A stretch of 64,000 nt of DNA from the NCBI GenBank assembly GCA_028291265.1, contig JAQGIK010000064.1:6082-70081 (forward strand). Reading direction: 5' to 3'. This stretch comes from Caulobacter sp. Its GTDB lineage: Bacteria; Pseudomonadota; Alphaproteobacteria; Caulobacterales; Caulobacteraceae. A model generated the notes under the pieces. It was given only the letters and a program-made list of their open reading frames with translations, did not search any database and had not been told where the DNA came from. The position numbers were made by a program, and so were the translations under genes. Numbering within the stretch: position 1 is the first letter of the stretch; every line of letters begins with the position of its first letter. This document shows, in pieces, positions 7,182 to 36,078 of this stretch.

Positions 7182-7435
7182 AATGTCTTCCCCTGAACCC
7201 CGACCGGCCCCTCCGACCGACCAACGCACCGTGAACGGTGTTCGTCAGATACGCACCTTCCGCGCGTTTGGTTTTGCCGTCAAATTTGAAGGGCTTAGCC
7301 GTTATGGTGAACCGGCGGGATCGGGCTCTCCATCCGCTTGCATTCCGTTTGGCCGACCGGTGTTTGATGCTATCGTGACCCCTTCGGGGATGGACCCAGG
7401 CCGGGGAGGCCGGGAACGAGCGTATAGGGGGCCGC

Positions 7436-10755: not shown

Positions 10756-10757
10756 CG

Positions 10758-12680: not shown

Positions 12681-12684
12681 AGCC

Positions 12685-15600
12685 ATGGGGCGGAAGGGCA
12701 TCAAACGCTGGCTGCTCGGAGCCCTGGCCATCGCGGCCTCCGTCCTTGTGGTCGGGGGCCTGACCACGGCCTCGGCCCTGGCGCGGGCCGAGGAAGAGGA
12801 AATGCCGGTCGCCCGGACCTACGTCGCCGCCCCGCCCGCCAAGGCCGGCCAGGCGCCCGCCGAAGCAAAAGCCAAGAGCGCCGGCTGCATGAGCTGCCAT
12901 TCGCCGGTCGACTCGGTGTCGATGCATGCCTCCGAGGCCGTGGTCATCGGCTGCGCCGACTGCCACGGCGGCGACGCTGGTGCGAGCCTGCCGGCCGGGA
13001 CAGCGAAGGACAGCGCCTCCTACGTCGCCGTCCGCGACCGGGCCCACGTCCTGCCGCGCTATCCCAAGGCCTGGGGCTGGCCGGGCTCGGCCAATCCCAA
13101 ACGCAGCTACAGCCTGCTCAATCGCGAGTCGCCAGCGTTCATCCGCTTCGTCAATCCGGGCGACTACCGCGTCGCCCGCCAGGCCTGCGGCGCCTGCCAC
13201 ATGGGGCTGATCGAGGCCAACGAACGCTCCCTGATGGCCACCGGGGCGATGTTCTATGGCGGGGCCAGCTACAACAACGGCGTCCTGCCGTTCAAACGCT
13301 ACATGGTCGGCGAGTCCTACACGCCCGACGGCGAGACGGCGAAGATCGTCTCTCCCGGCAAACCGGCCGGCACGGTCACCGAGGCGGAAGCCAGGCGCGG
13401 CGCCCTGCCGGTGCTCTATCCGCTGCCGACCTGGCAGGTGGTGCCGCCGGGCGATGTCTTCCGGGTGTTCGAGCGCGGCGGCCGCAACATCGGCACGCAG
13501 TTCCCCGAGATCGGCTTGCCCAACCCGACCGGCCAGACCCAGCGGCTGGAAGAGGCCGGCCGGCCCGACATCCGCCAGTCGAACCGGGGTCCGGGCACCG
13601 GCCTGCGCATCGCCGTGCCGGTGCTCAATATCCACAAGACCCGGCTGAACGATCCCTACACCTGGTTCCTCGGCACCAACGACCAGCCCGGCGACTACCG
13701 CTCCTCGGGCTGCGCCAGCTGCCACGTCGTCTACGCCAACGACCGCGAGCCGCGGCACAGCCTGACCTACGCCCAGTTCGGCCGCGACGGGCAGAGCCAG
13801 ACCGCCGATCCGACCATCGACAAGGCCGCGCCGGGCCACCCGCTGAAGCATGTGTTCAGCCGCGCCATCCCGACCAGCCAGTGCATGAACTGCCACATGC
13901 ACCAGCCCAACATGTTCCTGAACAGTTTCCTCGGCTACACCATGTGGGACTACGAGTCCGACGCGCCCTCGATGTGGCCGAAAAAGCAGAAATACCCCTC
14001 GGACAAGGACATCCGCGAAACCAACGACCGCAACCCCGAGGGCGCCGCGCCGAAGGGCCTGTGGGGCGACCTCGACTTCATGCGTGAGGTCTACGGCCTC
14101 AACAAAAACCTGAAAGACACCCAGTTCGCCGACTACCACGGCCACGGCTGGAACATCCCCGGCGTCTTGAAGCGCGACCGGGCAGGCAACCTGCTCGACA
14201 AGGACGGCAAGATCGTCAGCCCGGACGACCCCGAGAAATGGCGCAGGAAGGGGGAGGGCGAGTTCGTCCAGCCCGGCGTCAATCCCGGCAAGACCGTCCA
14301 CATGATGGATATCCACGCCGAGAAGGGCATGCAGTGCGCCGACTGCCACTTCGCCCAGGACAGCCACGGCAGCGGCCTGATCATGGGCGAGGTCGCCTCG
14401 GCCGTGGAGATCAGCTGCAAGGACTGCCACGGCAACGCGCGCAAGTATCCGAATCTGCGCACGTCCGGGCCGGCCGCCCCGCCTGGCGGCGCCGACCTGA
14501 TGGTCCTACGCAACCCGGACGGCCAGCGCCGTTTCGAATGGCTGGAGCGGGATGGCCGGCGCGTGCTGATGCAGCGCTCCATCGTCGATCCCAAGCTGGA
14601 GTGGGAGGTGTCGCTGGTGAAGGACGCCGTCGATCCGACCAGCCCGACCTTCAACGCCAAGTCGGCCCGCGCCAAGCTGATGAGCAAGGGGGTGGCGGGC
14701 CAGAAGCCGTTCGCGTTTGGATCGGGTGTCGCCGACAAGGATCTCGCCCACCCCGAGGCCGAGATCGCCTGCTTCACCTGCCACACCAGCTGGACGCCGA
14801 GCTGCGGCGGCTGCCACCTGCCCATCGAGGCCAACTGGAAGGCCGAGAGCCACAAGGACAAGGGCGGCGAGACCCGCAACTTCGCCACCTACAATCCGCA
14901 GGTGGCCCGCGACGACATGTTCCAGCTGGGCAAGCACCAGCTGACCCGCGGCGGCATCATCGCGCCTGTCCGATCAAGTTCGGCCCTGGTGCTCAGTTCA
15001 ACCAACATCAACCGCGAGCGCATCTATGTGCAGCAGCCGCCGATCTCGGCGGCGGGCTTCTCCAGCCAGGCCTTCGCGCCGCACTTCCCGCACACGGTGC
15101 GGACGACCGAGACCAAGACCTGCACCGACTGCCACGTCTCGGCGGCCGAGGACAACAACGCCATCATGGCCCAGCTGCTGACGCTGGGAACGGGCACAGT
15201 CAACTTCGTCGGCATGCATGCCTGGGTCGGGGCTGAAGGCGGCTTCGAGGCCATCCGCGTCACCGAATGGGACGAGCCGCAGGCGGTGCTCGGCTCCTAC
15301 CTGCAGAAGTACGCCTACCCCGACTTCTACGGGATGCACGTCAGCAAGAACCGTCTCCAGCTGATGAACTGGACCCGCAAGGCCAGGGACGGCGGGGTCG
15401 AGGAATTCGCCAATGTCCGCCAGGGGGCCGGCGGCGACGTCCGCTGCCTGCAGCTGCGCGGGGAATACATGTACGTGGCCGAGGGCCGGGGCGGCTTCCG
15501 CGTCTATGACGTGGCCAGCATCGGCAACAAGGGCGTCTCCGAACGCATCGTCACCGCGCCGTTCTCGGGCGCGGGCCACGACACCCAGGTCGCCTCGGCC

Positions 15601-16587
15601 AACGCCACCTGCATGGCCCTGCCGACCAACCAGCCGATCAACCCGCTGCGCAACACGCCGATGATGCAGCAGGAAAACCTCGAACAGCCCTTCCACCCCA
15701 TTTACCACTACGCCTTCGTCACCGACGCGAAGGAGGGGTTGATCGCGGTCAACGTCGACACGCTTGCCGACGGCGACCCACGCAACAACAAACTGAAGCG
15801 CGCGGTGACCTGGAACCCCGGCGGGGTGCTGAACGGGGCCCGCCACATCACCCTGGCCGGCCGCTATGCCTACATCGCCGCCACCTCGGGCCTCGTGGTC
15901 GTCGACCTCGACGATCCGCTCAAGCCTCGCCATGTGACCACCGTGCCGCTCGCCGACGTGCGGGCCAGCGCCGTGCAGTTCCGCTACCTGTTCGTCACCG
16001 ACCGCGAAGGGGTGCGGGTCCTGGACGTCACCCGTCTCGACCGCCCCGTGGTCATCCCCGGCGCCGTCGTGCCGCTGGCCGATGCGCGCCGCCTCTACGC
16101 CGCCCGCACCTACCTCTATGTGGCGGCCAAGGCCGAGGGCCTGGTCATCCTCGACATCGAGCGGCCCCGCGCGCCCCGCATCGCCCAGCGCATCACCTTC
16201 GACGGCCGGCTGAACGACGCCGAGGACGTGGTCATCGGCGCCACCAACGCCAGCCTGTTCGCCTACGTCGCCGACGGCCGCAATGGCCTGAAGGTCCTGC
16301 AGCTGACCAGCCCGGCCAGCCAGCCCAACTTCTACGGCTTCAGCCCCGCCCCGGTCCCCGAACTGATCGCCTGGGCGAAGACCAGGACGCCGGCCTTCGC
16401 TCTGTCCCGCGGCCTCGACCGCGACCGCGCCGTCGACGAGACCGGCAACCAGATGGCCGTCTTCGGCCGCCTGGGCTCGCGACCCTTCAACAGGAGCGAG
16501 ATGGAACGGCTGTTCCTCAACCCGCAGGGCGAGGTCTATCGGGTGACCGACACGCCCAGCATGGCCGACTGGCTGGCGGGCCGCTAA
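12685..16587 (+). CDS. 1300-aa exported decaheme cytochrome c with C-terminal LVIVD-type beta-propeller
   Basis: Signal peptide; ten CxxCH (CMSCH, CADCH, CGACH, CASCH, CMNCH, CADCH, CKDCH, CFTCH, CGGCH, CTDCH); about six Y(A/L/M)(Y/F)V...G(L/F/V)xVxD(V/I/L) repeats in the C-terminal third. Confidence 0.88.
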   Translation: MGRKGIKRWLLGALAIAASVLVVGGLTTASALARAEEEEMPVARTYVAAPPAKAGQAPAEAKAKSAGCMSCHSPVDSVSMHASEAVVIGCADCHGGDAGASLPAGTAKDSASYVAVRDRAHVLPRYPKAWGWPGSANPKRSYSLLNRESPAFIRFVNPGDYRVARQACGACHMGLIEANERSLMATGAMFYGGASYNNGVLPFKRYMVGESYTPDGETAKIVSPGKPAGTVTEAEARRGALPVLYPLPTWQVVPPGDVFRVFERGGRNIGTQFPEIGLPNPTGQTQRLEEAGRPDIRQSNRGPGTGLRIAVPVLNIHKTRLNDPYTWFLGTNDQPGDYRSSGCASCHVVYANDREPRHSLTYAQFGRDGQSQTADPTIDKAAPGHPLKHVFSRAIPTSQCMNCHMHQPNMFLNSFLGYTMWDYESDAPSMWPKKQKYPSDKDIRETNDRNPEGAAPKGLWGDLDFMREVYGLNKNLKDTQFADYHGHGWNIPGVLKRDRAGNLLDKDGKIVSPDDPEKWRRKGEGEFVQPGVNPGKTVHMMDIHAEKGMQCADCHFAQDSHGSGLIMGEVASAVEISCKDCHGNARKYPNLRTSGPAAPPGGADLMVLRNPDGQRRFEWLERDGRRVLMQRSIVDPKLEWEVSLVKDAVDPTSPTFNAKSARAKLMSKGVAGQKPFAFGSGVADKDLAHPEAEIACFTCHTSWTPSCGGCHLPIEANWKAESHKDKGGETRNFATYNPQVARDDMFQLGKHQLTRGGIIAPVRSSSALVLSSTNINRERIYVQQPPISAAGFSSQAFAPHFPHTVRTTETKTCTDCHVSAAEDNNAIMAQLLTLGTGTVNFVGMHAWVGAEGGFEAIRVTEWDEPQAVLGSYLQKYAYPDFYGMHVSKNRLQLMNWTRKARDGGVEEFANVRQGAGGDVRCLQLRGEYMYVAEGRGGFRVYDVASIGNKGVSERIVTAPFSGAGHDTQVASANATCMALPTNQPINPLRNTPMMQQENLEQPFHPIYHYAFVTDAKEGLIAVNVDTLADGDPRNNKLKRAVTWNPGGVLNGARHITLAGRYAYIAATSGLVVVDLDDPLKPRHVTTVPLADVRASAVQFRYLFVTDREGVRVLDVTRLDRPVVIPGAVVPLADARRLYAARTYLYVAAKAEGLVILDIERPRAPRIAQRITFDGRLNDAEDVVIGATNASLFAYVADGRNGLKVLQLTSPASQPNFYGFSPAPVPELIAWAKTRTPAFALSRGLDRDRAVDETGNQMAVFGRLGSRPFNRSEMERLFLNPQGEVYRVTDTPSMADWLAGR

Positions 16588-17337: not shown

Positions 17338-17793
17338 ATGGAGACCAACAAGGGTCAGTTCGCAGGTCGGATGATGCGTCCCATTTCCCTGGTCGTCGTC
17401 TCGCTGCTGGTCGGCTCGCCGCTTGCCGCCGGGCCGGCCGCCGCCACCGGCCTGTCCCATCCGGCGCGGGCGCCCAACGAGAAAGACGCCGCCGCGATTG
17501 TCGCCAGGCCGGTGTGGCTGCAGCGTCCGACCAAGGCACAGCTCGAAGCGGCCTACCCGCGTATGGCGCTTCGTCGAAACGTCTCCGGCCTGGCGGTTCT
17601 TTGGTGCAGCGTCCGTCCCGACGGCTGGCTGCGTGACTGTCGGGTCGTTTCCGAGACTTCAACCGGCTACGGCTTTGGCCAGGCCGCCATCGACGTCAGC
17701 CCCCGGTATCGGTTGGCCAGCAAGGACGCCCTTGGCCGTAGGGTCGCGGGCCGGTTCGTTCGCTTCAGCGTCGTCTTCCGGACTCCCGACTAA
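17338..17793 (+). CDS. TonB C-terminal domain protein
   Basis: Hydrophobic N-terminus, then AYPxxA...SGxAVLxCxVxPDGxLxDCxVVSE...GFGxAA, the alphaproteobacterial TonB_C pattern. Confidence 0.75.
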   Translation: METNKGQFAGRMMRPISLVVVSLLVGSPLAAGPAAATGLSHPARAPNEKDAAAIVARPVWLQRPTKAQLEAAYPRMALRRNVSGLAVLWCSVRPDGWLRDCRVVSETSTGYGFGQAAIDVSPRYRLASKDALGRRVAGRFVRFSVVFRTPD

Positions 17794-18659
17794 TGCCCGG
17801 CTGAGCCCTCGGCCCGCTCATGGGCCAGGTGCTTGAGGAACCCCTGCATCTTCACCGTATAGCGGGCCAGGATCTTGGCCCGGCCCTGTTCGTCGGTGTC
17901 GGTGTAGTGGCTGACCAGGGCCTTGCCGTTCCACCAGTGCAGGCCGATGCCGGGCGGGCCGGCGACGATCATCGGGCGGTCGTCGGGGTTGTCCAGGTTC
18001 ATCGGGTCAAGGTCGAGCACGACCTGCGGCTGGGTCGAGGGACAGACCCGCACGGTCGTCCCCCCGAACGCCGAGATGATCGGCCGGTGTACGTGGCCCG
18101 CCAGGATGGCGACGATGTTGTTGTGCCGGGCGACGATGGGCTCCAGCCGGGCGACCCAGGCCTCCGACGGGCCGATGGTCATCCACTCGATGCCGGTGTC
18201 GATGGGCGGGTGGTGCATGACCACCAGGGTCGGCCGGTCGGACTCGGCCAGCCGCTGTTCCAGCCAGGCGGCGCGGGGCTCGTCGAAGCCGCCGCCGTGA
18301 CGGCCGGTTTCGAGCGTGTCGAGCACCAGGATGCGCAGCGGCAGATTGTCGACGGCATACTGGTTGAAGCCGCCCGAGAAGGGGGCGTTCGGATAGACCT
18401 GGCGGAAGACGTCGCGGTTGTCGTGGTTGCCCATGCAGAACAGGACCGGCATGGCCAGCTTGTCGAGGATCTTCTTCAGCCGCTTGTAGCTGGGCAGGTC
18501 GCCGTGGTCGGTGAGATCGCCGGTGGCCAGCACCAGGTCGGGCCGCGGCGCCAGTTCGTTCAGCGTCTTGACCACCAGGCGCAGGCGCTTGGCGTTGTCC
18601 TCGAAGTCCCCGCCGGAGCCGAAGCCCAGGTGCAGGTCGGTGATCTGGGCGATCAGCAT
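17790..18659 (-). CDS. cpdA: Class III metallophosphoesterase (CpdA/GpdQ-like cyclic-nucleotide phosphodiesterase)
   Basis: Motifs DLH, GDLTD, GNHD, HHPP, GHVH; last gene of the cyclase operon. Substrate not proven. Confidence 0.8.
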   Translation of the reverse strand: MLIAQITDLHLGFGSGGDFEDNAKRLRLVVKTLNELAPRPDLVLATGDLTDHGDLPSYKRLKKILDKLAMPVLFCMGNHDNRDVFRQVYPNAPFSGGFNQYAVDNLPLRILVLDTLETGRHGGGFDEPRAAWLEQRLAESDRPTLVVMHHPPIDTGIEWMTIGPSEAWVARLEPIVARHNNIVAILAGHVHRPIISAFGGTTVRVCPSTQPQVVLDLDPMNLDNPDDRPMIVAGPPGIGLHWWNGKALVSHYTDTDEQGRAKILARYTVKMQGFLKHLAHERAEGSAGH

Positions 18660-18708
18660 GGTTGCCCCTCAGCAGCTGTAATCGTCCGGCCCGAACGCGG
18701 CCCTCCCG

Positions 18709-20973
18709 TTACTTATCTTCCGCTTGATACACCCCGTCCCAGTCCGCCGCCGGCGGGCTCAAGCTGTATCGTGCGATACGTTCGGCGAAGAGTCCCGCCA
18801 GTTTTTCGATTCCGAACACAGCGCCCGCAGCTCTCACGCGAGTTAGGGCGGTTTGCGCCGCCGTCCACTGCTGTCCGCGATAGGCGGCCAGCATGTCGGC
18901 GAAGGCGGTTTTCATCGCCTGGAAATCCTTGTCGCCGGCCATCACCGGCCGCCCCAAAAGGGCGAAGATGCGCTCCGGGGTGTCTCGTCCGACCACCCGC
19001 ACCTGGTCGACTTCGAGCTGGGCGAACTCCGGGATTTCCCTGGCCAGGGTCTGGCCCATCAGGATCGGCACGCCATAGACTTTGGTCAGACCCTCCAGCC
19101 GCGAGGCCAGGTTCACGGCGTCGCCGATCAGGCTGTAGCTCAAGCGTTGGCGCGAGCCCATGTTGCCGACGCAGCAGCGGCCGGCGTTGAGGCCGATGCC
19201 GATGGCGATGTCGCCTGGCCAGGGACCAACCAGGCCGCTCTGGCGGGCGTTCATCTCCTTCATGGCGTCGATCATGTCGAGCGCCGCGTTGGCTGAGTTG
19301 CGGTACTGGTCCGGGTCGTCCAGCGGCGCGTTCCAGAAGGCCAGCACGGCGTCGCCGATGTATTTGTCGATGGTCGCCTTGCGGGCCAGCAGGGCCTCGG
19401 TCAGCGGGGTGAGCAGCTCGATCAGGAAACTGATCAGTTCCTGCGGGGCCATCTTCTCGCTGATCCGCGAGAAGCTGCGGATGTCGCTGAACAGGACGGT
19501 CATGTCCCGCTCCTCGCCGCCCAGTTCGAGCTGTCCCGGATCGCGGGCGATGCGCTCGACGAGCTCCGGCGAGAGGTACCGGTCGAAGGCGCGGCGGATG
19601 TAGGCCCGCGAACGCTCTTCCCGATAGAAGCTGAAGCTGGTGACCAGGGTGTAGACCAGGGCGATGGTCAGCACCGGCATGGTCGGCTCCAGCAGCAGGC
19701 CGTTGTAGCGGAACGAAACCCAGGAGGCGGCCATGGTGCCCGCCAGCGACAGAGCGGCGATCAACCCGCTGCGCAGCGCGCCCAAGGTTGGGGCGAGGAA
19801 GGCCAGGGCCAGGCCGAACAGCACCACCAGCACCCGCTCCAACCCCAGCGCCCAATCGGGCCGTGACAGGAACTTGCCGAGAATTATCTGTTCGGCGGCC
19901 TGGGCGTGGACGATCACCCCCAACTCGTTCGCATTCAGGGGGGTTGCGACCAGATCGCGCAGACCGACCGCGCCGGTCCCGACGAACACCAGCTTGCCCT
20001 CGAACTTTTGCCTTATCTCCTCGGGGCTGAGCTCGCCGGTCAGGATGCGCCAGGCCGGCACGATCCGTTCGGGGCGGTCGGCGGTGTAGTGCATCCACAG
20101 CTCGCCCCCCTGTGTGGTAGGCGCCTCGTACTGGCCGACCTTGACGGCGACTACCGCGACCTGGCCGCCGGAAAACTCGCCGCTGGCGTCGGCGCCCTTG
20201 ACCATGATGGCCCCGGCCCCCTGGGCCACGCGCAGGGCCTCCAGCGACAGGGACGGCACGATCCGTTCGCCGATGCGGGCGACCAAGGGCACGCTGCGGA
20301 TGACGCCGCCCCCCCGGTTCACCACATTGACGAAGCCGGCCCCCGCCGCCTTCTCGGCAATGGCTGGCAGGGTCGGGATGGCGCCGTTGAAGGCCGGTAA
20401 GGCGCTCATCGGCGGGGTGCCGACCGCCACCACCCCGGCTGGCTCGAACGGGCGCGCCTTGTTGGGGGTTTCTGTCATAAAATAGCTGGCCACGGTCGGG
20501 CCGTTGGCCATGGCTTGGCCGAACAGCAGGTCGTGGTCGGGTAGGGCCGCGATGTCGGCGTAGTCGCCCTTGGCCTGCGGGTTCTGCCGCAATAGCTCGG
20601 CGGCGCGCGAGGGGCTGGTGCGGTCGGGCTCGCTGAACACCACGTCGAAGGCGATAGCGGCGGCGCCGGAGTCGGTCAGGGCCTGGGTCAGGCGGGCGGT
20701 GTCGGTGCGCGGCCACGGCCACTGTCCAAGGCGCCGGATCGTCTCGTCGTCGATGTCGACCACGCGGACGTCGGCGTCTTCATACGGCCTCGGATAAAGA
20801 CGCTGATAGCTGTCGAACACCAGGTTGCCGAGGTTCGAAAGGACCGCCGGCTGCCATAGGTGGATCAAGGCAATGATCAGGGTGACCACCAGCCCCGGGG
20901 CGGCGGACTTCATGGTTTGGACCCAGCCGGCGCTCTGGCCTGCGCGGGGCTTGCGGGCCCTTTTCTCGCTCAT
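18709..20973 (-). CDS. CHASE2-domain class III adenylate cyclase
   Basis: N-terminal TM, CHASE2 (VVDIDD...GQWPWPR...FDVVFSEPDR), three TMs, catalytic LFSDIRSFS, DKYIGDA and YSLIGDAVNLASRLE. Confidence 0.93.
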   Translation of the reverse strand: MSEKRARKPRAGQSAGWVQTMKSAAPGLVVTLIIALIHLWQPAVLSNLGNLVFDSYQRLYPRPYEDADVRVVDIDDETIRRLGQWPWPRTDTARLTQALTDSGAAAIAFDVVFSEPDRTSPSRAAELLRQNPQAKGDYADIAALPDHDLLFGQAMANGPTVASYFMTETPNKARPFEPAGVVAVGTPPMSALPAFNGAIPTLPAIAEKAAGAGFVNVVNRGGGVIRSVPLVARIGERIVPSLSLEALRVAQGAGAIMVKGADASGEFSGGQVAVVAVKVGQYEAPTTQGGELWMHYTADRPERIVPAWRILTGELSPEEIRQKFEGKLVFVGTGAVGLRDLVATPLNANELGVIVHAQAAEQIILGKFLSRPDWALGLERVLVVLFGLALAFLAPTLGALRSGLIAALSLAGTMAASWVSFRYNGLLLEPTMPVLTIALVYTLVTSFSFYREERSRAYIRRAFDRYLSPELVERIARDPGQLELGGEERDMTVLFSDIRSFSRISEKMAPQELISFLIELLTPLTEALLARKATIDKYIGDAVLAFWNAPLDDPDQYRNSANAALDMIDAMKEMNARQSGLVGPWPGDIAIGIGLNAGRCCVGNMGSRQRLSYSLIGDAVNLASRLEGLTKVYGVPILMGQTLAREIPEFAQLEVDQVRVVGRDTPERIFALLGRPVMAGDKDFQAMKTAFADMLAAYRGQQWTAAQTALTRVRAAGAVFGIEKLAGLFAERIARYSLSPPAADWDGVYQAEDK

Positions 20974-22817
20974 TGCCCTGTCCCCCAGGTGATGGCGCGG
21001 CTTTGCACGGCGATGGCCTTGGACCCCTTTGCCGGCTCCTTGCGGGTCGGCCGGATCGGCGCGTGATAGCTGTGGCAGTCGGCGCAGTCGGCCCCGGCCG
21101 CCTGTTTGACCTTGGCCCGGTCGGCCCCGTGGCAGGACTGGCAGGTCGCGAGCCTGGGCAGCAGCAGGTCCTTGGCCGTCCCCGACTTGCCGGCGGCGTG
21201 GCAGGTCGCACAGGCCGGCTGGCCGTCGGGGCCTTTCGAATGTTCGGGGATGTCGTGGTTGAAGGTCCCCTCGGTCAGCCAGGCGTCGGCCAGCTTGACC
21301 GGCCCGGCTCGCCAGACCAGCGAGCCGTCCGTCGGCGGCGAGGCGCCGTGACAGCCGAAACAGGTCCCGCCCGGCGAGAACAGGCCACGGATACGCTGGG
21401 CGGCGCTGGCGGTGACGCCGCTGTAGACCTCCGGATCGCCGGGCCGCCGGCGGCCCATGGTCGGGCCGCTGCGGGAGACTACGCCGCCGCCCCCGGAGAA
21501 GAAGCTCACCAGTTTGCGGGTGTCGCCGTGCGGCAGGGCGCCAATCGAATGGCAGGCGCCGCAGGCCGCTTCCATCTTCACCGGCAGGTAGTTACCGCCC
21601 TTCGGTTCTTCCTTGTGGCAGCTCTGGCAGTCGAGCGGGGCGCCATAGCCGCGTCCCGCGCCCAACGAGATCGCCATGCGCGCCGGGCCGCCGGTGCGCG
21701 ACAGGTGCAGGTCGTGCGGGAAGATCAGGCCGCTGTTCTCGGACGGGTGGGCGGCCATGGAGATGCGGCGAACCTGCAGCGGCGAGGGCGAGACGGTGAC
21801 CAGGGGCGCCAAGTCCGGGTGGCGGCCCCAGTCGGCGACGTTGGCCAGCCTGGTGTCCTTCAGCCGGCGGTCGAGCCCGGCGTGACAGGCGGTGCAGCTG
21901 TGCGCCGTCTGCAGGGTCGGCTTGGCGTGGTCGGGATCGCCCAGCGGATCGCCGATGTGCTCGACGTGGCAGCTGGCGCAGCGCTGCTGCGGCTTGTTGA
22001 ACACCTTGCGGGCGTAGTCGAAGACCTGCTCACCCCAGCCGTCCGGGGCCGGCGTGCCCCAGACCAGACGGCGCAGCCCGGCGTGGTCGGCGACGGTGCG
22101 CAAGGGCTGGTCGGGCGCGCCCCTGGTCTTGAGGCGGGCGACGGTCGCCTGCAGTTGGGCGGGCGTCTGGCTGGCCGTGTGACAGCTCTGGCAGGCGTCG
22201 TCGCGCACGGCGACGAAAGCTTGCTGGTGACAGGCCTGGCAGTCGTTCTCGAGGAAGGCGTGGGTCTTCGACAGCGGGCCCGACGACCACTGGCTGTCGA
22301 GATCGATCTTCGGATGGCTGCCGAACACGCCATAGACGGCCAGCACCGGCAGGATCAGGCTGAGCACGGCGATCAGCAGGAAACCCGTCCAGGCGATCCG
22401 CCGCTTGCCCAGCACCTTGGCGCGGGGGATCAGGGTCGCCGGGGTGGCGACATCGCCCTGGCCGGGGGCGGCCTCGACGCGGCTCAGGGTCAGGATGACC
22501 TCATCGCCCTGGCCGGGGCCGATGGTCAGCAGGTGGTCGCCGAAGCTGAGCTCGGGGACGTCGCTGATCTTGACCACGGCGCTCTTGGTGAAGCGGCCGT
22601 CGACGCCGAACGGCTGGTCGCCCACCGCCTGGATGCGCAGGCGGCCGAGGCCCTCCTGGCTGAGAGTGGCGTGGTGGATGCTGACCGCCAGGTCGGGCAC
22701 ACGGATCTCGCAGTCGGCGCCCCGGCCGATGCGAAGAGGCCCTTCGGCATAGGTCTTCTTGCGGACGATCTCGCCGCCGGCGGCCCGTTTGGTGATCTGG
22801 CGAAGGGTGAAGCTCAT
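20970..22817 (-). CDS. FHA domain - TM - decaheme cytochrome c
   Basis: IGRG...VSIHHA FHA signature, one TM helix, ten CxxCH (CQACH, CQSCH, CASCH, CTACH, CQSCH, CGACH, CFGCH, CATCH, CQSCH, CADCH). Confidence 0.88.
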   Translation of the reverse strand: MSFTLRQITKRAAGGEIVRKKTYAEGPLRIGRGADCEIRVPDLAVSIHHATLSQEGLGRLRIQAVGDQPFGVDGRFTKSAVVKISDVPELSFGDHLLTIGPGQGDEVILTLSRVEAAPGQGDVATPATLIPRAKVLGKRRIAWTGFLLIAVLSLILPVLAVYGVFGSHPKIDLDSQWSSGPLSKTHAFLENDCQACHQQAFVAVRDDACQSCHTASQTPAQLQATVARLKTRGAPDQPLRTVADHAGLRRLVWGTPAPDGWGEQVFDYARKVFNKPQQRCASCHVEHIGDPLGDPDHAKPTLQTAHSCTACHAGLDRRLKDTRLANVADWGRHPDLAPLVTVSPSPLQVRRISMAAHPSENSGLIFPHDLHLSRTGGPARMAISLGAGRGYGAPLDCQSCHKEEPKGGNYLPVKMEAACGACHSIGALPHGDTRKLVSFFSGGGGVVSRSGPTMGRRRPGDPEVYSGVTASAAQRIRGLFSPGGTCFGCHGASPPTDGSLVWRAGPVKLADAWLTEGTFNHDIPEHSKGPDGQPACATCHAAGKSGTAKDLLLPRLATCQSCHGADRAKVKQAAGADCADCHSYHAPIRPTRKEPAKGSKAIAVQSRAITWGTGQ

Positions 22818-22824
22818 GCCCGCC

Positions 22825-23697
22825 TCACCAGTAGATGAAGACGCTGACGATGTGCGCGGTCAGCGCCATCAGCAGGGCGATGGAAGCGGGGACGTGAATA
22901 GCCAGCCAGGCCCCCAGCAGGGTGCGGATGCGCAGGTGCTTGCGCAGTTGCAAGAGGGCGGCGCTCTTGCGGTCGAGCAGGGCGGTGACGTTGCCGATGG
23001 CGGCCCGTTCGCTCTCGCTGGCCCGGCGGATGAGGCCCTTCAGCTTGCGCAGCGCCCGCCGGGTGCCGCAGTCCATCGGCCGGGTGCTCAGCCTGCGGAA
23101 GAAACCGCCGCCGACCTTGCTCTTCTCCAGCGACAGCCGCACCGCCGCCGCCTGGCGCTGGTTCAGCGGCTGGGCCGCGTCGTTGAGCTGGCGGTCGAGG
23201 CTGCGGATGGTCTCGACCATCTGCTTCTGGGTGGTCTCGCGGCGGTTGTTGCTGAGGGCCTTGGGCAGGCCGGCGTAGGCGATGATGCCGTAGACTCCCG
23301 ACAGCACGACGAGGATCATCAAGGCATAGGCGAGCGTATGGATGTTCCAGCCGAACTGCAGCCCGCTGTGCAGGGTGGCGATGGCGACCAGGGCGATGCC
23401 CAGATAGACGTGGGCCGAGACCCAGGCCTTCAGCGACCAGTCGCCCTTGGTGATCACCCGCTTGCGGATGCCCAGCGCCGTCAGCCAGACGATCAGCAGG
23501 GCGCCGATGGTCCCGAGCGTATAGCCGTACCAGCTGCCGCCATTGGGCCTGGGGTGCACATCGGCCAGCACATAGCCGACCGCCGCCGCGATGCTCAAGG
23601 CCAGTCCGACCCAGGCCCAGCGATAGCCGGCATGGCGCAGGAAGCCGACATGGACCTGGGCGTTCGACCGCTTTCCCTTGCGCGGCGCCCTGGCCAT
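22825..23697 (-). CDS. Integral membrane protein with two His-x13-His helices (di-heme b / ferric-reductase-like)
   Basis: About five TM segments; AHVYLGIALVAIATLH and IHVPASIALLMALTAH. 1-nt gap from the upstream gene. Confidence 0.7.
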   Translation of the reverse strand: MARAPRKGKRSNAQVHVGFLRHAGYRWAWVGLALSIAAAVGYVLADVHPRPNGGSWYGYTLGTIGALLIVWLTALGIRKRVITKGDWSLKAWVSAHVYLGIALVAIATLHSGLQFGWNIHTLAYALMILVVLSGVYGIIAYAGLPKALSNNRRETTQKQMVETIRSLDRQLNDAAQPLNQRQAAAVRLSLEKSKVGGGFFRRLSTRPMDCGTRRALRKLKGLIRRASESERAAIGNVTALLDRKSAALLQLRKHLRIRTLLGAWLAIHVPASIALLMALTAHIVSVFIYW

Positions 23698-23698
23698 C

Positions 23699-26146
23699 TC
23701 AGCTCTCGCCCCGCACGCGGGTGACGGTCAGGAAGTCCTCGGGCGAGACCCGGATCGCCGCCCCGGTCGGGCAGGCCCGCACGCAGGCCGGACCCCCGTC
23801 GATGCCGGCGCACATGTCGCATTTGATGGCGACCTTGGGCTTCTCGCCGTGCTTCTTCTTGGCCTTGGTCTTCCACTCGAGGTCCGGCTCGCCGGGCCCG
23901 GGTCCGGCCCCGAACAGGAACCAGCTCAGGAGGCCCGGCTTCTGCGGCGGCGGGCTGTCCATGCGGATCACTCCGTAAGGGCAGTTGCGCTGGCAGTTGC
24001 CGCAGCCGATGCAGGTCTCGTCGATGAACACCTCGCCGTCGGCCCCGCGCCGGATGGCGTTGGGCGGGCAGTCGGTCATGCAGTAGGGGTGCTCGCAGTG
24101 CCGGCAGCTGGTCGGCACATGCAGGTTGGCGTAGGTGCGGCCCGCCTCGCGGTCCAGTCGCGACAGCCCGTCATGAACGTCGGCGCAGGCCTTCTCGCAG
24201 TTGTCGCAGCCGACGCAGAGGGTCTCGTCGATCAGCAGCACGTCGGTGGCCTCGCCGATGCCCTGGTCGACCAGGAAGTCGGCCACGGAGCTGTAAAGAT
24301 CGACCACCCCGCTGAAGCGGTCCTTCTGCTCCTCGATGTAGCTGTTGATCTGTTTGCGGGACCGCATGTCCTCCCGCATCTTGGCTTCGAGTTCGGGCTT
24401 GCGGGCCAGCAGCCGCCGGAACAGATCGCCGTCCAGCCGCACCACTTCGGAGCGGATCGCCGCCCGCACCGTCGCCGTCCGTCGGCCGCCGTCGATCAGC
24501 GCCATCTCCCCGACATACGACCCGGCCGGGACATAGTTGAGGAACACCGTCTTGCCGCCGATCTCCTTTTCGATGGTCATCGAGCCGGAGCGGATGATGA
24601 AGATGTCGTAGCCTTCCTCACCCTCGTTGATGATGGCGTCCTCGGCCTTGACCTGCATGAGCTCGGCGCTGGTCAGCACCTCGACGATGTCTTCCTTGGT
24701 CAGGCCCGAGCCGAAGATCTGCAGCATCTGGCGTTCGGTGGTGATGCGGTTGACCGTCTCCCGCGCGTCCTTGTTCTGGGCCATCAGCCGCAGGCTGGCC
24801 GTGCGTGGCATCTCCAGCAGGATGCAGGGCTCGGCCGCACGGATCGTCGCCCCGCGGCGGCGGCCGGATATGAGGCCCACCTCGCCGAAGATGGAGCCCT
24901 GGCCGATCGGCACCGTCTCGCGCCGGTTCTTCGGATTGACCTCGACCTTCACGGAGCCGGCGGCGATGCCGAACATCGAGGAGCCGATGGAATTGCGCTG
25001 GAAGATGACCTCGTCCGGCGCGCAGACCCGCACCGAGGAATCGAGCAGGAACTCCCGCATCTGCAGGGTTGACAGGCCGTTGAGGATTTCGATCCGTGTG
25101 CGGAGGAATTCCAGCCACTCGGCCACCGACTGGCCGCCGGGCAGGGCCGCCAGCTTGGCCTCGAGGATCGGTTCGTCGGCGGGTTTCAGGCCGAGGTTGC
25201 CGGTGATGAACTCGATGACATCGTAGCCCTGGTTCATGCAGTGCTTGATCAGCGGATAGCCGGCCAGGGCCCCGATGACATAGATGCCGGGCGCGGTGGT
25301 TTCGAAGGTCGGCGACAGGCGCGGAAAGGCGTCGCGGTCCGCGCTCGTGAAGGCCACGCCCATGGCCTCGACGAACTTGCGCGGCGGGGCCGAGCCCATG
25401 CGGGCGATGATCCGGTCACAGCGGATCGACTGCTGCCCTTCCGGTGTGTCGATGGTGATGAAGCCGGGGTCGACCCGGGCCGGACTGGAGCCCGCCAGGA
25501 TGGTGATCCGGCCGGCCGCCGCCGCGTCGGTCAGGGCCTTGACGTTGGCCTCCTTGGCGCGCGCGAAATCCATCGACTTGTTGAGCAGGGTGACGGTGTT
25601 GCCCTGGGCCTGGTCGGCGATCAGGCCCAGCGCGTTCTCGATGCCGGCGTCGCCGCCGCCGACCACGACGATGTGCTCGTCGACGTACTCGGTCGGGTCG
25701 TCGAGCGTGTACTGGATGTGCTTCAGGTCGCTGCCCGGCACGGTCATGACGTTGGGGTTGCCCTGGGTGCCGATGGCCAGCACCACGGTCTCGGCCTTCA
25801 GCACCCGGCCGTCGGTCAGGGTGATGGTGAAGTCGCCGCGCGATCCGGCGACGGAGGCGGCCTCGGCCCTGTAGGCGACATTGACCTTGTGGCCGCCCGT
25901 CTCGCTGTTCCAGCGGTCGAGGATGGTCTCGCGCTTGCCGGCCTCGAAACCGATGTCCGAGCGCAGCACCAGCTGCGTCGGGGTGGCCATGATGTGCTTG
26001 CCGCGCTGGTAGCGGAAGATGGTGTCGGAGAGGCGGTCGGTCTTCTCCAGCAGGACGTGACTCATCCCCCGGCGGGCGGCGCGCGCGGCGGCGCTGAGGC
26101 CGGCCGGCCCCGAGCCCAGGATCGCAACCCTGTAGACTCCCTCCAT
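23699..26146 (-). CDS. Fusion: FAD/NAD(P)-dependent oxidoreductase (TrxB/YpdA-like) + two cNMP-binding domains + 4x[4Fe-4S] ferredoxin (815 aa)
   Basis: Start MEGVYRVAILGSGPAG at 26146; second Rossmann motif VVGGGDAG; FGEVGLISGRRRGATIRA and VGEMALIDGGRRTATVRA; 16 Cys in four DmsB/NrfC-like cluster motifs. Confidence 0.9.
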   Translation of the reverse strand: MEGVYRVAILGSGPAGLSAAARAARRGMSHVLLEKTDRLSDTIFRYQRGKHIMATPTQLVLRSDIGFEAGKRETILDRWNSETGGHKVNVAYRAEAASVAGSRGDFTITLTDGRVLKAETVVLAIGTQGNPNVMTVPGSDLKHIQYTLDDPTEYVDEHIVVVGGGDAGIENALGLIADQAQGNTVTLLNKSMDFARAKEANVKALTDAAAAGRITILAGSSPARVDPGFITIDTPEGQQSIRCDRIIARMGSAPPRKFVEAMGVAFTSADRDAFPRLSPTFETTAPGIYVIGALAGYPLIKHCMNQGYDVIEFITGNLGLKPADEPILEAKLAALPGGQSVAEWLEFLRTRIEILNGLSTLQMREFLLDSSVRVCAPDEVIFQRNSIGSSMFGIAAGSVKVEVNPKNRRETVPIGQGSIFGEVGLISGRRRGATIRAAEPCILLEMPRTASLRLMAQNKDARETVNRITTERQMLQIFGSGLTKEDIVEVLTSAELMQVKAEDAIINEGEEGYDIFIIRSGSMTIEKEIGGKTVFLNYVPAGSYVGEMALIDGGRRTATVRAAIRSEVVRLDGDLFRRLLARKPELEAKMREDMRSRKQINSYIEEQKDRFSGVVDLYSSVADFLVDQGIGEATDVLLIDETLCVGCDNCEKACADVHDGLSRLDREAGRTYANLHVPTSCRHCEHPYCMTDCPPNAIRRGADGEVFIDETCIGCGNCQRNCPYGVIRMDSPPPQKPGLLSWFLFGAGPGPGEPDLEWKTKAKKKHGEKPKVAIKCDMCAGIDGGPACVRACPTGAAIRVSPEDFLTVTRVRGES

Positions 26147-26278
26147 TGTTCGCCCCGTCGGCCGGAAAGCCCGGCTGCCCCAAGGGATACGGCCCCCTGC
26201 CGCCCCTTCGATTGCTTTACCAGTACAGGCGATTGCGACTAACGTATATCGCTTGGAACGGGAGCGCGTCGGGGGACC

Positions 26279-28255
26279 ATGAGCGCCGAAATCGGCCAGT
26301 TCGCCCTGATCCTCGCCTTCGTGCTGGCGCTGGTTCAATCCGTGGTGACGATGTGGGGCGCCCACCGTCGCGATGACGCCCTGATGGCGCTCGGCCGCAT
26401 GGCCACGCTGCTGCAGCTTTTCTTCGTGGTCATCGCCTTCGGGGCCATCGCCTGGGGCTATGCGACGCTCGACTTTTCGGTCGAGCTGGTCGCCCGCCAC
26501 AGCCACACGACCCAGCCGCTCGCCTACCGCCTGGCCGCCACCTGGGGCAGCCATGAGGGCTCGATGGTGCTGTGGATCCTGATCCTGGCGCTGCACGGTG
26601 GGGCCTTGGCCGTGTTCGGCCGCCCCCTGCGGACGACCTTCCTGTCGCGGGTGCTCGGCATCCAGGGCCTGCTCGGCGCCGCCTTCCTCGGCTTTTCGCT
26701 GTTCACGTCCAATCCCTTCCTGCGTCTATCGCCCGCGCCACTCGAAGGGACCGAGCTCAATCCGCTGCTGCAGGACCCCGGCCTGATCAGCCACCCGCCG
26801 CTGCTCTACCTCGGCTACGTCGGCTTCAGCGTCGCCTTCGCCTTCGCCCTCGCCGCCCTGATCGAGGGCCGGGTCGACGCCGCCTGGGCGAGATGGGTGC
26901 GGCCCTGGGTGCTGTTCGCCTGGACGTCCCTGACCGTCGGTATCGCGCTCGGCAGTCACTGGGCCTACTACGAGTTGGGCTGGGGCGGCTGGTGGTTCTG
27001 GGATCCGGTCGAGAACGCCTCCCTGATGCCCTGGCTGATGGGCACCGCCCTGCTGCACAGCGCCCTGGTGCTGGAAAAGCGCGGGGCCCTGATCAGCTGG
27101 ACCCTGCTGCTTTCTATCCTCACCTTCTCGCTCAGCCTGATCGGCACCTTCCTGGTCCGCTCGGGCATCCTCAACAGCGTCCACGCCTTCGCCGTCGACA
27201 GCGCCCGCGGCGCCTATGTCCTGGCCTTCTGCGTGTTGGCGACGGGCTCGGCCCTGGCCCTCTACGCCTGGCGGGCCCCGGCCATGCGCACCGGCGCCGT
27301 CTTTGGTCCCATCTCCAGGGAGGCCGGGATCACGCTCAACAACCTGGTGCTGGTGGTGGCCACGGCGACCGTCTTCCTCGGCACCTTCTATCCGCTGCTC
27401 TACCCGCTGATCAGCAATGGCGGCACCATCACCGTCGGCCCGCCCTTCTTCAACCTGATCTTCCTGCCGTTGTTCGCCATCCTCCTGACCCTGGTCGGCT
27501 TCGGCCCTCTGCTGCATTGGAAGCGGGATGCGGTGAAGGCCATCCTCGTCCGCCTGCGCTGGCCGCTCGGCCTGTTCGTCATCGCGCTGCTGGTCGGGAC
27601 CTTCGCCTTCGGCCTCGGCAAGACCCTGGCCGCCTTCGGCATCGCGCTGGGCGTCTGGCTGATCGCCGCCGGCGGCCTCCTGCTCGTGCGCCGCTGGGGC
27701 CTGGGCTCGAAGAGCGCCGCCGCCAACTGGAGCCTGGTCCGCACCACGCCGGTCGCCATCTGGGCCGTGGCCCTGGCCCACACGGGCCTCGGCGTCACCT
27801 GCGTTGGGGTCACCGCCATGGGCGGGTTCGAGGCCAGCAAGGTGCTGCGCATGGGCCCCGGCGACCAGGTCGAGTTCGCCGGCCGCACCGTCATCCTCGA
27901 CAGCCTCGGCGAGGTCGCCGGCCCCAACTACCAGGCCGACCGCGGGGTCTTCCGCATCGTCGGCGGGCGCGGCCCCAGACAGCTGATCTCCGAGCGCCGC
28001 TTCTACCCCTCCAGCCAGAGCCAGACCATCGAGGCGGCCATCGGGCCGTCGCTGGTCGGCAATCTCTACATCTCGGTCGGTGAGCGCGACCAGGCCGGCA
28101 AGGCCGTCATCCGGATGTGGAACCACCCCTTCGTCGGCTGGATCTGGGGCGGCGCCATCCTGATGGCGCTCGGCGGCCTCATTTCGCTCAGCGACCGCCG
28201 CCTGCGCCTCGGCGCCCCCCAGCCGTCCCGCAAGACCGTCGAGGCCGCCGCATGA
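26279..28255 (+). CDS. ccmF: Cytochrome c heme lyase CcmF/NrfE
   Basis: WGGWWFWDPVENASL (WWD domain), WGSHEGS, HPPLLYLGY, SVHAFA. Confidence 0.96.
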   Translation: MSAEIGQFALILAFVLALVQSVVTMWGAHRRDDALMALGRMATLLQLFFVVIAFGAIAWGYATLDFSVELVARHSHTTQPLAYRLAATWGSHEGSMVLWILILALHGGALAVFGRPLRTTFLSRVLGIQGLLGAAFLGFSLFTSNPFLRLSPAPLEGTELNPLLQDPGLISHPPLLYLGYVGFSVAFAFALAALIEGRVDAAWARWVRPWVLFAWTSLTVGIALGSHWAYYELGWGGWWFWDPVENASLMPWLMGTALLHSALVLEKRGALISWTLLLSILTFSLSLIGTFLVRSGILNSVHAFAVDSARGAYVLAFCVLATGSALALYAWRAPAMRTGAVFGPISREAGITLNNLVLVVATATVFLGTFYPLLYPLISNGGTITVGPPFFNLIFLPLFAILLTLVGFGPLLHWKRDAVKAILVRLRWPLGLFVIALLVGTFAFGLGKTLAAFGIALGVWLIAAGGLLLVRRWGLGSKSAAANWSLVRTTPVAIWAVALAHTGLGVTCVGVTAMGGFEASKVLRMGPGDQVEFAGRTVILDSLGEVAGPNYQADRGVFRIVGGRGPRQLISERRFYPSSQSQTIEAAIGPSLVGNLYISVGERDQAGKAVIRMWNHPFVGWIWGGAILMALGGLISLSDRRLRLGAPQPSRKTVEAAA

Positions 28256-28791
28256 GGCGCCTGGCCTTCATCGTCCCGGTCATCGTCTTCCTCGGCATCG
28301 CCGCCGTGCTGGCCGTCGGCCTCGGTCGCGATCCGAAAATCCTGCCCTCGATGCTGATCGGCAAGCCGTTGCCGACCTTCAACCTGCCCGACGTCCGCGC
28401 CGGCACGGGCGGCCGGGGCCTCGCCTCAGCCGACTTCCACGGCAAACCCGGCCTGATCAACGTCTTCGCCAGCTGGTGTGTCTCCTGCCGCATCGAGCAC
28501 CCCTTCCTGATGCGTCTCAAGGCCGAGGGCGTCTCGATCCACGGCCTCAACTGGAAGGACAAGGGCGACGCCGGAGCCCGCTGGCTGACCCGGTTCGGCG
28601 ACCCCTACGACCGCGTCGGCTACGACCCGACGGGCCGCACCGGCATCAACCTCGGCGTCACCGGCGCCCCCGAGACCTTCGTCATCGATAGCAAGGGCGT
28701 GGTCCGCTACCGCTACGTCGGCCCGATCACGCCGGAGGTCTGGGCCACCACCCTGAAACCCCTGCTCGACAAGCTGGAGGCCGAAGCATGA
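28252..28791 (+). CDS. ccmG: Thiol:disulfide interchange protein CcmG/DsbE
   Basis: N-terminal anchor, NVFASWCVSC, LGVTGAPETFVID; ATG overlaps the ccmF stop. Confidence 0.93.
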   Translation: MRRLAFIVPVIVFLGIAAVLAVGLGRDPKILPSMLIGKPLPTFNLPDVRAGTGGRGLASADFHGKPGLINVFASWCVSCRIEHPFLMRLKAEGVSIHGLNWKDKGDAGARWLTRFGDPYDRVGYDPTGRTGINLGVTGAPETFVIDSKGVVRYRYVGPITPEVWATTLKPLLDKLEAEA

Positions 28792-29246
28792 AGCGTCTCC
28801 TCGCCCTCGTCCTCGCCTTGACCGTCGTCGCCGGCCCGGCCCTCGCGGTCCTGCCCGAAGAACAGCTCAAGGACCCGGTTCTCGAGGCCCGCGCCCGCCA
28901 TCTCAGCAAGGAACTGCGCTGCGTCGTCTGCCAGAACCAGACCATCGACGACAGCGACGCCCCCCTGGCCGCCGACCTGCGCGCTATCCTGCGCGAGCGG
29001 CTGGTGGCCGGCGACAGCGACAAGCAGGCCAAGGCCTATCTGGTCCAGCGCTACGGCGACTTCGTGCTGCTGAAACCGCCGATCAATCCCGCCACCCTGT
29101 TCCTCTGGTTCGGCCCGGCCCTGCTGCTGCTCGGCGGCGGCTTTGGCGTCTGGCGCTACTGGCGCGGCCGGTCGGTCGCCGCCCCGGCCCCGCTCGACCC
29201 CGAAGAACAGGCCCGGCTCAAAGCCCTGCTGAGCGAGACATCATGA
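28788..29246 (+). CDS. ccmH: Cytochrome c biogenesis protein CcmH/CycL
   Basis: LRCVVCQNQTIDDS motif and YGDFVLLKPP. Confidence 0.95.
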   Translation: MKRLLALVLALTVVAGPALAVLPEEQLKDPVLEARARHLSKELRCVVCQNQTIDDSDAPLAADLRAILRERLVAGDSDKQAKAYLVQRYGDFVLLKPPINPATLFLWFGPALLLLGGGFGVWRYWRGRSVAAPAPLDPEEQARLKALLSETS

Positions 29247-32593: not shown

Positions 32594-34047
<1,454 letters not shown>

Positions 34048-34056
34048 GGCGTAACG

Positions 34057-35703
<1,647 letters not shown>

Positions 35704-36078
35704 GGTCTTCTCCGGGGCGGGCGCGGAGGCGGGCGCCGGGTGGGACGCGGGCAGGGACACAGGGGAGAGGGCTGGCGGTTCCGGAAGCGGCGCGACGTCG
35801 AACAGGCTGGCCCGCTCCCGCCGGCGCATCGCGCGCCGACCGGCCGCGCGGGCGAACAGCAGGATGAGCAGCAGGGCGACGAAGCCGCCCAGCCACGATG
35901 CGCCCGGTCCCAGAGCCCAGGCCGCGATCGTCTCGACAGTCCCCATGACCCCCATCCCTTCTCCCGCACCATGACCCAGCCGCCGACGCTTGGCGAGCGG
36001 CGTTACGTGAACCTGAAAGCAGAACGGGGGCGAACCTCGCGGCCCGCCCCCGTCCTTTCGGTCAGTCTGTCGGCGGCC

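Follow-up and report, generated by a model that had tools for sequence, protein, structure and literature searches.

A candidate cyclic-AMP switch at the inner-membrane entry of a multihaem electron conduit in a Caulobacter operon

The window analysed here, a 64,000-nt stretch of the genome of a Caulobacter sp. that is available as a draft (198 contigs, 94% complete), carries a block of five genes, designated g1 to g5, in which a putative electron-transfer trio is joined to a putative cyclase and a putative phosphodiesterase (PDE) for 3',5'-cyclic AMP (cAMP). Gene structure, domain content, residue conservation, the inventory of related genes in the genome and the conservation of linkage were observed directly for these genes, which are laid out in the window as follows.

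26146..23699, minus strand: g1, the candidate reader, 815 aa, starting MEGVYRV
23697..22825, minus strand: g2, a five-helix membrane protein, 290 aa
22817..20970, minus strand: g3, 615 aa, with an FHA-like domain, a transmembrane (TM) helix and a decahaem part
20973..18709, minus strand: g4, the candidate writer, 754 aa, its start overlapping the g3 stop (ATGA)
18659..17790, minus strand: g5, the putative eraser, a metallophosphoesterase of 289 aa

The five open reading frames (ORFs) are co-directional and are separated by intergenic gaps of 1, 7, -4 (the ATGA overlap) and 49 nt, which bears out the spacing reported in an earlier note on this DNA that had read the block as writer, eraser and enzymatic reader of a cyclic nucleotide. 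The start of g1 was placed by homologue comparison at the Met at 26146, which is common to 80 homologues; a longer, GTG-started ORF extending to 26596 was discarded because it has no homologue support, all homologues beginning at the Met of MEGVYRV. A promoter and terminator scan identified no terminator-like site inside the g1-g5 block. We consider it probable, at roughly 60%, that g1-g5 constitute one functional unit, a cAMP switch on the inner-membrane entry of a multihaem conduit.

Pfam and NCBIfam searches of g1 identify Pyr_redox_3/Pyr_redox_2, cNMP_binding and Fer4 families, with two cyclic nucleotide monophosphate (cNMP) binding stretches (117.9 bits against a Pfam cut-off of 27.5) positioned between the flavin and the Fe-S modules. 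The phosphate-binding cassettes, GEVGLISGRRRGAT and GEMALIDGGRRTAT, present residues that align with G71, E72, R82 and S83 of E. coli CRP, and in both cassettes the corresponding G, E, R and T (GE...R-x-A-T) do not vary across 81 Caulobacterales and Sphingomonadales sequences. The four-module architecture reaches relatives that are ~28% identical, across many 50%-identity clusters, and among these distant relatives the Glu of the first pocket is nearly invariant and the Arg and Thr/Ser are kept in about two thirds. Because it is invariant in 81 orthologues and mostly kept down to ~28% identity, the nucleotide-type pocket is, as judged by these alignments, an old and selected feature of the g1 family. 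No helix-turn-helix family in Pfam or NCBIfam matches g1, the cNMP region of which is matched by the NCBIfam model of mycobacterial Pat. The earlier proposal that the receptor is a redox enzyme instead of a transcription factor is supported by the intact, invariant cNMP pockets and by the lack of a DNA-binding domain in g1.

Many domains of the CAP family bind other ligands or none, and the cNMP-type domains of g1 might likewise bind no cyclic nucleotide, serving another ligand, dimerisation or a linker scaffold, with the cyclase and PDE as unrelated neighbours. About a third of distant relatives have another residue in place of the pocket Arg or Thr, which would fit this explanation, as would the lack of a cyclase within 10 kb at most Sphingomonadales loci. 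We nonetheless regard it as very improbable, since G-E and R-x-A-T are invariant in both domains, the linkage of g1 to cyclase and PDE is repeated and rearranged across lineages, and the sole cyclase of the genome sits in the operon.

In an AlphaFold2 (AF2) model of g1, with a predicted local distance difference test (pLDDT) score of 72 overall and below 50 in the Fe-S module, the flavodomain fold matches those of Bdr/YpdA, of thioredoxin reductase (TrxR)-type ferredoxin-NADP+ reductase (FNR) and of TrxR, with a TM-score of up to 0.84 on the target. No CxxC is present in residues 1-330, and g1 scores below the NCBIfam equivalog cut-offs of both YpdA (128 bits against 339.9) and TrxR (50.9 against 343). 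A role for g1 as a thioredoxin or bacillithiol-disulfide reductase is therefore not supported, only the fold being shared, and the lack of a CxxC makes it more probable that the flavin feeds the fused Fe-S clusters than that it reduces a disulfide. The Cys-motif module is of the DmsB/NrfC/HybA type in NCBIfam, and four [4Fe-4S]-type Cys motifs were recognised in it by eye (CVGCDNCEKAC, CRHCEHPYCMTDCP, CIGCGNCQRNCP and CDMC...CVRACP); all 16 of the 16 cluster Cys are invariant, even in relatives at 28-66% identity. No TM segment is predicted in g1, which points to a cytoplasmic protein.

The earlier note is silent on the nature of g2 (a putative di-haem membrane protein) and of g3 (a decahaem cytochrome). 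Five TM segments are predicted in g2, two of which carry two His-x13-His pairs, H96/H110 and H268/H282, that are invariant in 39 sequences, and g2 is on this evidence a putative di-haem b transmembrane electron carrier. No family in Pfam or NCBIfam matches g2, no fold in the Protein Data Bank (PDB) matches its model (pLDDT 69.7) at E≤0.001 with Foldseek, and neither g2 nor g3 has a match among PDB sequences by profile or sequence search; since neither fold nor profile nor sequence connects g2 to a solved structure, a NOX-like label is kept for it solely as an analogy. For g3, a single TM helix (residues 140-169) is predicted to leave the FHA-like part in the cytoplasm and the decahaem cytochrome c in the periplasm. 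The FHA match is weak (23.3 bits in Pfam, which also reports multihaem families), G31, R32, D42 and H49 are invariant among homologues, and exactly 10 CxxCH motifs are found in 74 of 74 homologues.

A trio of this kind forms part of the ptdABCDEFG porin-cytochrome cluster named by Elbon, Stewart & Glass, in which PtdE is a cyclic-nucleotide-binding 4Fe-4S protein, PtdF a ferric-reductase-like membrane protein and PtdG a periplasmic decahaem, and the function of which is described as "completely unknown" (bioRxiv 10.1101/2023.11.21.568154). Matched by that description, g1-g2-g3 are a ptdEFG-like trio, and g1 would be the cytoplasmic subunit of a transmembrane electron conduit. The earlier view of the reader as an enzyme accordingly survives in that g1 is a redox protein, but not as a free-standing one, since g1 belongs to the conserved g1-g2-g3 conduit as its cytoplasmic subunit. 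Sequence does not reveal which way the electrons flow, and the conduit could instead take up periplasmic or extracellular electrons, with g1 as a cNMP-regulated sink or redox sensor; the ptd preprint, which gives the function as unknown, discusses metal reduction and nitrogen cycling and mentions neither a cyclase or PDE nor regulation by nucleotides (bioRxiv 10.1101/2023.11.21.568154). We strongly doubt an inward flow, however, given that reduction of NAD(P)+ from haem c potentials is uphill, that no coupling subunit is seen, and that FNR-type flavodomains with a fused Fe-S wire are typically electron-input modules.

In Pfam, g4 presents a CHASE2 domain (178 bits, residues 33-388) and a Guanylate_cyc domain (PF00211, 69.7 bits against a cut-off of 21.9), and hydrophobic segments predicted at residues 21-47 and 374-449 flank a periplasmic CHASE2. 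The protein is ~38% identical to Sinorhizobium/Rhizobium CHASE2 cyclases. Its catalytic residues were aligned to those of the solved cyclases CyaC, CyaB and Cya2. The two metal Asp lie in FSDIRSF and IGDAV, the Lys of DKYIGD aligns with the Lys of CyaC and CyaB at the position where the guanylyl cyclase Cya2 has Glu, the Ser of YSLIG occupies the place of the Thr in CyaC and CyaB, both class IIIb enzymes, and the Asn and Arg are present in NLASRLE; among 15 orthologues, these catalytic and specificity residues show full invariance or conservation of at least 90%. The alignment to solved cyclases confirms all of the residues that had been assigned beforehand (metal Asp, Lys, Ser and Asn/Arg). 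Adenylyl specificity, which had been called likely, is sustained by the class IIIb-like combination of Lys with Ser at the Thr position, and the product of g4 is likely of the adenylyl type, the Ser being read as a conservative variant of Thr. Class IIIb cyclases with Thr/Ser at this position are often bicarbonate-responsive, and it is suggestive in this regard that a eukaryotic-type carbonic anhydrase adjoins the PDE-CHASE2 cyclase pair at one Phenylobacterium locus (L066:21165-21983, minus strand).

The g5 product is a cytoplasmic protein that matches Metallophos (83.6 bits in Pfam) and contains all the class III PDE motifs, D8 (DLH), GD, GNHD, HH and GHVH, which are conserved in 64 sequences. 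With NCBIfam, it scores 145.6 bits against the SpdA model (cut-off 400) and 81.1 bits against the CpdA model (cut-off 225), and on these scores g5 is a member of the class III PDE family that is an orthologue of neither. The possibility has to be weighed that g5 does not erase the product of the cyclase at all and is instead an SpdA-like 2',3'-cNMP hydrolase, or a broader phosphodiester hydrolase, which protects the pockets of g1 from nucleotides of RNA breakdown or has nothing to do with them, cAMP being removed in some other way. The SpdA equivalog is the best NCBIfam match of g5, its nearest solved relatives are the promiscuous enzymes GpdQ and Rv0805, and 7 of 13 g1-carrying genomes in an order-wide sample (see below) have no g5-like gene. 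In addition, the SpdA encoded at the locus of the CHASE2 cyclase gene cyaD1 cleaves only 2',3'-cNMPs and does not act on 3',5'-cAMP, and the binding of 2',3'-cAMP to Clr is unproductive (PMC4222275), in agreement with the earlier description of SpdA as a 2',3'-cNMP enzyme. We judge this alternative somewhat unlikely, because both NCBIfam scores are far under their cut-offs, no other recognisable cAMP PDE was found in the genome (neither a class II PDE nor a g5 paralogue), and the widespread pairing of cyclase with PDE is most simply explained as make-and-break. Of the proposed eraser, the presence of a class III PDE in the operon thus stands, while cleavage of the cyclase product is unproven, SpdA, GpdQ and Rv0805 being the best available models. 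Convergent on g5, an ORF at 17338-17793 (plus strand) encodes a 151-aa protein with a TonB C-terminal domain, the two genes overlapping by 4 nt at their 3' ends; no homologue of this protein was found at E≤1e-8 in the 80 g1 loci compared below.

In the gene inventory of the source genome, g4 is the one class III cyclase (PF00211), and the single CYTH protein belongs to a type that 11 of 14 control genomes also encode. Class I cyclases and class II PDEs were not found, and none of the five genes has a paralogue. Beyond g1, eight proteins carry a PF00027 cNMP_binding domain: six regulators of the Crp/Fnr type and two fusions, one with patatin and one with TrxR. In an alignment with CRP, every one of the eight lacks the pocket Glu, the Arg-Ser/Thr or both, and the cNMP-patatin protein comes nearest to the canonical form (GE...HT). 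Both fusions have non-canonical pockets, the thioredoxin-reductase-like one (557 aa) lying on contig C31 at ~3100-4800 and the patatin one (577 aa) on contig C1 at ~34100-35900. The g1-g5 operon appears to be the only cAMP circuit encoded in the genome, with the caveats of draft status and of unconventional receptors. That the sole recognisable cyclase, the sole PDE of its class and the only canonical pockets are all found in one operon provides the strongest support for a closed signalling loop.

The cAMP made by g4 might nevertheless act mainly via a Crp/Clr-like transcription factor that controls expression of the cluster, in which case the cNMP domains of g1 would be minor or vestigial. 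As the earlier note had stated, CHASE2 cyclases of S. meliloti (CyaD1/CyaD2/CyaK) act through Clr (PMC4222275, PMC13001267). The source genome encodes six proteins of the Crp/Fnr type, and at one locus elsewhere (L091) a Crp-like factor with an HTH_Crp_2 domain and a canonical pocket (GE...RSAS) is encoded just downstream of a CHASE2 cyclase, divergent from g1-g2-g3. A mainly transcriptional route is improbable in our view, given that no Crp/Fnr protein of the source genome keeps both the Glu and the Arg-Ser/Thr, that the L091 factor has no orthologue in the source genome or in the 80 g1 loci, and that both g1 pockets are invariant over 81 orthologues, which argues for selected ligand binding. 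The closed local loop that had been proposed for this operon therefore fits the source genome, with its single cyclase, its PDE without paralogue and its only canonical pockets, but need not extend to all lineages, in view of the L091 factor and of Sphingomonadales in which the cyclase lies ~20-24 kb away.

In order to place the operon in a comparative framework, relatives of g1 were collected by a scan of species genomes (536 relatives), of which the best 80 loci were analysed. These loci derive from Caulobacter, Brevundimonas, Phenylobacterium and many Sphingomonadales. The g1, g2 and g3 genes are contiguous in 73 of the 73 loci with enough length, and a 45%-identical relative shows the same contiguity. 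Of the 69 loci with room for a g5-like gene, 63 have one, and in 42 loci it directly follows g3, starting within 600 nt. An even sampling of the order to which the source belongs (151 genomes) was analysed in parallel. Since g1 occurs in only 13 of these 151 genomes, representing 6 of 40 genera and 2 of the 9 genomes of the source's own genus, the locus is, by its distribution, a patchy accessory locus. A class III cyclase is encoded in all 13 genomes with g1, versus 58 of the 138 without it, and in 12 of the 13 a cyclase lies on the same contig as g1 and no more than 25 kb from it. The only carrier without a nearby cyclase has a g1 homologue interrupted by an in-frame TAA (G151:C1:1040135-1042570), and its locus may be decaying.

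The association of cyclase, PDE and reader noted in the window recurs across lineages, with at least five gene orders of g1, cyclase and PDE.

Order 1, g3-cyclase-PDE: source window and L001/L002
Order 2, cyclase-PDE after an insert of ~4 kb that carries GDH, FecR and TPR-protein genes in the opposite orientation: Brevundimonas
Order 3, PDE followed by a more distant CHASE2 cyclase, 3-5 kb downstream, beside carbonic anhydrase: Phenylobacterium
Order 4, TPR/SlipAM-like barrel, FecR, CHASE2 cyclase and Crp-like factor, divergent from g1: L091
Order 5, cyclase-PDE-g1-g2-g3-ccmF, all co-directional: L092

A placement of the L091 cyclase right after ccmI was ruled out, the TPR/SlipAM-like barrel and FecR genes intervening. 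The operon of L001, a metagenome-assembled genome, has ~87-91% DNA identity to the window, and its g1 protein is 96% identical; the two sequences are collinear from 40569 down to the g5 stop and part completely there, around window position 17805, so that the pentahaem/barrel/decahaem arm is not adjacent in L001, reflecting either a rearrangement or an assembly break. In four Sphingomonadales genomes, identified by matching contigs to the locus, the only cyclase is a CHASE2 cyclase located ~20-24 kb away in the other arm of the island, where the gene order is CHAT/TPR protein, cyclase, 248-aa protein, ShlB-type transporter, giant protein, pentahaem, HbpS and barrel. At L081 (1488-14620, plus strand) and also at L083, from Novosphingobium and Sphingobium, this arm starts with a 1022-aa CHAT/TPR protein, the CHASE2 cyclase, the 248-aa protein and a transporter of the ShlB/FhaC type; the protein of 1866-2046 aa that precedes the pentahaem gene at these two loci has no family match. 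Cyclase and g5-like PDE genes are also neighbours in many genomes without g1, which fits a make-and-break cassette that has been repeatedly joined to the conduit.

The activities, the direction of electron flow and the gating by nucleotide that we infer from these sequences would combine into the following mechanism. A periplasmic or envelope cue acting on the CHASE2 domain of g4 would lead its cytoplasmic class III domain to make 3',5'-cAMP, which would bind the two domains of g1 between the flavin and Fe-S modules and alter the geometry or the docking of these modules. Binding would thereby enable, or block, electron transfer from NAD(P)H through FAD to the Fe-S clusters, and electrons would next cross the membrane by way of the two b-haems of g2, reach the ten c-haems of g3 and continue to the periplasmic and outer-membrane cytochromes of the island. 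The switch would be reset by g5 through hydrolysis of cAMP, or g5 would keep the pockets free of 2',3'-cNMPs. Because a conduit that bypasses the quinone pool would drain reductant, a fast post-translational switch is plausible. The full proposal, that cAMP from an envelope-sensing CHASE2 cyclase directly gates NAD(P)H-driven electron export through g1, with no transcription factor, via a portable module encoded in an operon, is put forward tentatively, at somewhat less than an even chance.

Several observations weigh against a cAMP switch on the conduit. Neither the Fe-S module nor the geometry between domains can be judged from the AF2 model of g1, which lends no structural support to gating. 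The haem assignment of g2 is based on His spacing alone, fold and sequence searches having come back empty. The substrate of g5 is called into question by its SpdA score, which is above its CpdA score, by the promiscuity of its nearest solved relatives, GpdQ and Rv0805, and by the strict 2',3' preference of the SpdA at the cyaD1 locus (PMC4222275). A cyclase is found within 10 kb in only 19 of the 80 g1 loci, and 7 of the 13 genomes with g1 in the order sample have no g5-like gene. The canonical Crp-like factor beside the L091 cyclase indicates, from sequence, a loop that is not necessarily closed or local in all lineages, and in the source genome the six Crp/Fnr-type proteins, the cNMP-patatin protein (GE...HT) and the cNMP-TrxR fusion are possible further receptors. 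Finally, the inventory was drawn from a genome that is only a draft in 198 contigs.

On the evidence of gene content and order, g1-g5 are the inner half of a conserved island, the other features of which are the following.

26147..26278, 132 nt: space between the divergent genes g1 and ccmF, presumed to hold the operon promoter
26279..30421, plus strand: ccmF-G-H-I, a cytochrome c haem lyase module, divergent from g1
7436..16587, plus strand: convergent arm with a pentahaem c554-like cytochrome, an HbpS/GlcG-like protein, a 640-aa putative barrel and a 1300-aa multihaem/LVIVD protein (Pfam)

No sigma-70-like consensus was found in the 132-nt g1/ccmF intergenic region, for which the scan is uninformative. 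The ccmF-G-H-I genes upstream of g1 are conserved in Caulobacterales loci, and a ccmI-like gene alone is found in most Sphingomonadales loci; the convergent arm is conserved downstream of g5 in many loci. Beyond that arm, a minus-strand gene at 3-7229, open at the edge of the window, encodes a repeat protein of at least 2409 aa with 12 cadherin, FG-GAP and Big_9 domains, and lies between the pentahaem gene and the TPR-barrel and FecR genes at the start of the contig. A plus-strand ORF at 276-7196, considered as a homologue of the giant Sphingomonadales gene, was rejected, as it has no family match and the real gene is the minus-strand cadherin/FG-GAP repeat protein; the plus-strand ORF is probably spurious. 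The TPR/beta-barrel and FecR homologues (contig C21:1237-3314, ~3-5 kb before window base 1) are 48% and 54% identical to Brevundimonas genes that are divergent from the CHASE2 cyclase, and by analogy with NsrA of S. meliloti they may be outer-membrane partners of g4, though ~21 kb away. On the far side of the operon, an ORF of 1491 aa at 32779-37254 (plus strand) has no Pfam match and may be spurious, the DNA having 68% G+C.

Bacterial cAMP is known mainly as a transcriptional signal, although a few enzymes, mycobacterial Pat among them, and some channels are directly responsive to it, and we know of no electron-transfer chain that is opened or closed by a cyclic nucleotide. The parts described here are of known kinds in a new combination, and the output is potentially new. 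Full-text literature searches returned no publication on the combination of cyclase, PDE and conduit besides the ptd preprint, and these taxa are absent from a survey of outer-membrane multihaem cytochromes. The operon sets a complete signalling set beside a conserved NAD(P)H-to-multihaem conduit, which occurs in over 500 species genomes, and it bears both on the role of ptd-type conduits in aerobic Alphaproteobacteria and on what CHASE2 cyclases control outside rhizobia. If the proposal is true, a second messenger would switch a respiratory-type electron wire post-translationally, and the presence of the make-and-break enzymes in the same operon would render the module portable between genomes. 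Cultured carriers include Brevundimonas denitrificans NBRC 110107, Phenylobacterium kunshanense BUT-10, Rhizorhapis suberifaciens DSM 7465, Sphingomonas laterariae LNB2 and Novosphingobium endophyticum CGMCC 1.15095.

Compared with known systems, and by the description in the preprint only, g1-g2-g3 resemble ptdEFG in the content and order of the trio and in its location beside a pentahaem and a porin. The source island differs from the ptd cluster in having the HbpS/GlcG-like protein, the 1300-aa multihaem/LVIVD protein and ccmFGHI, and in having no obvious PtdC or PtdD. The di-haem domains of the NOX, ferric-reductase and MsrQ type share with g2 the two His pairs, 13 apart, on two TM helices and the association with a cytoplasmic FAD/NAD(P)H protein; g2 has no Pfam family and no match by fold or sequence to a solved member of this group, and the dehydrogenase that would serve g2 is a separate protein with an Fe-S wire in between. 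TrxR-type FNR and YpdA/Bdr have the flavodomain fold of g1 but differ from it in that g1 has no CxxC and no YpdA active-site Cys context and is fused to cNMP modules and a four-cluster ferredoxin module. Mycobacterial Pat is like g1 in that a cNMP domain is fused to a catalytic module rather than to a DNA-binding domain, and it differs from g1 in its acetylation output and its single cNMP domain, and it is not known to have a dedicated cyclase or PDE in its operon. The CyaD-Clr-SpdA system of Sinorhizobium, like g4 and g5, combines a CHASE2 class III cyclase with a nearby class III PDE gene. The S. meliloti CHASE2 cyclases sense through the outer-membrane barrel NsrA (PMC13001267), and comparable candidate outer-membrane barrel partners for the cyclase are encoded in relatives of the present locus and just outside the window. 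The two systems diverge at the PDE, SpdA being a proven 2',3'-cNMP enzyme of which g5 is not an orthologue, and above all at the receptor, which in Sinorhizobium is the transcription factor Clr and here would be a flavo-Fe-S redox subunit with no DNA-binding domain.

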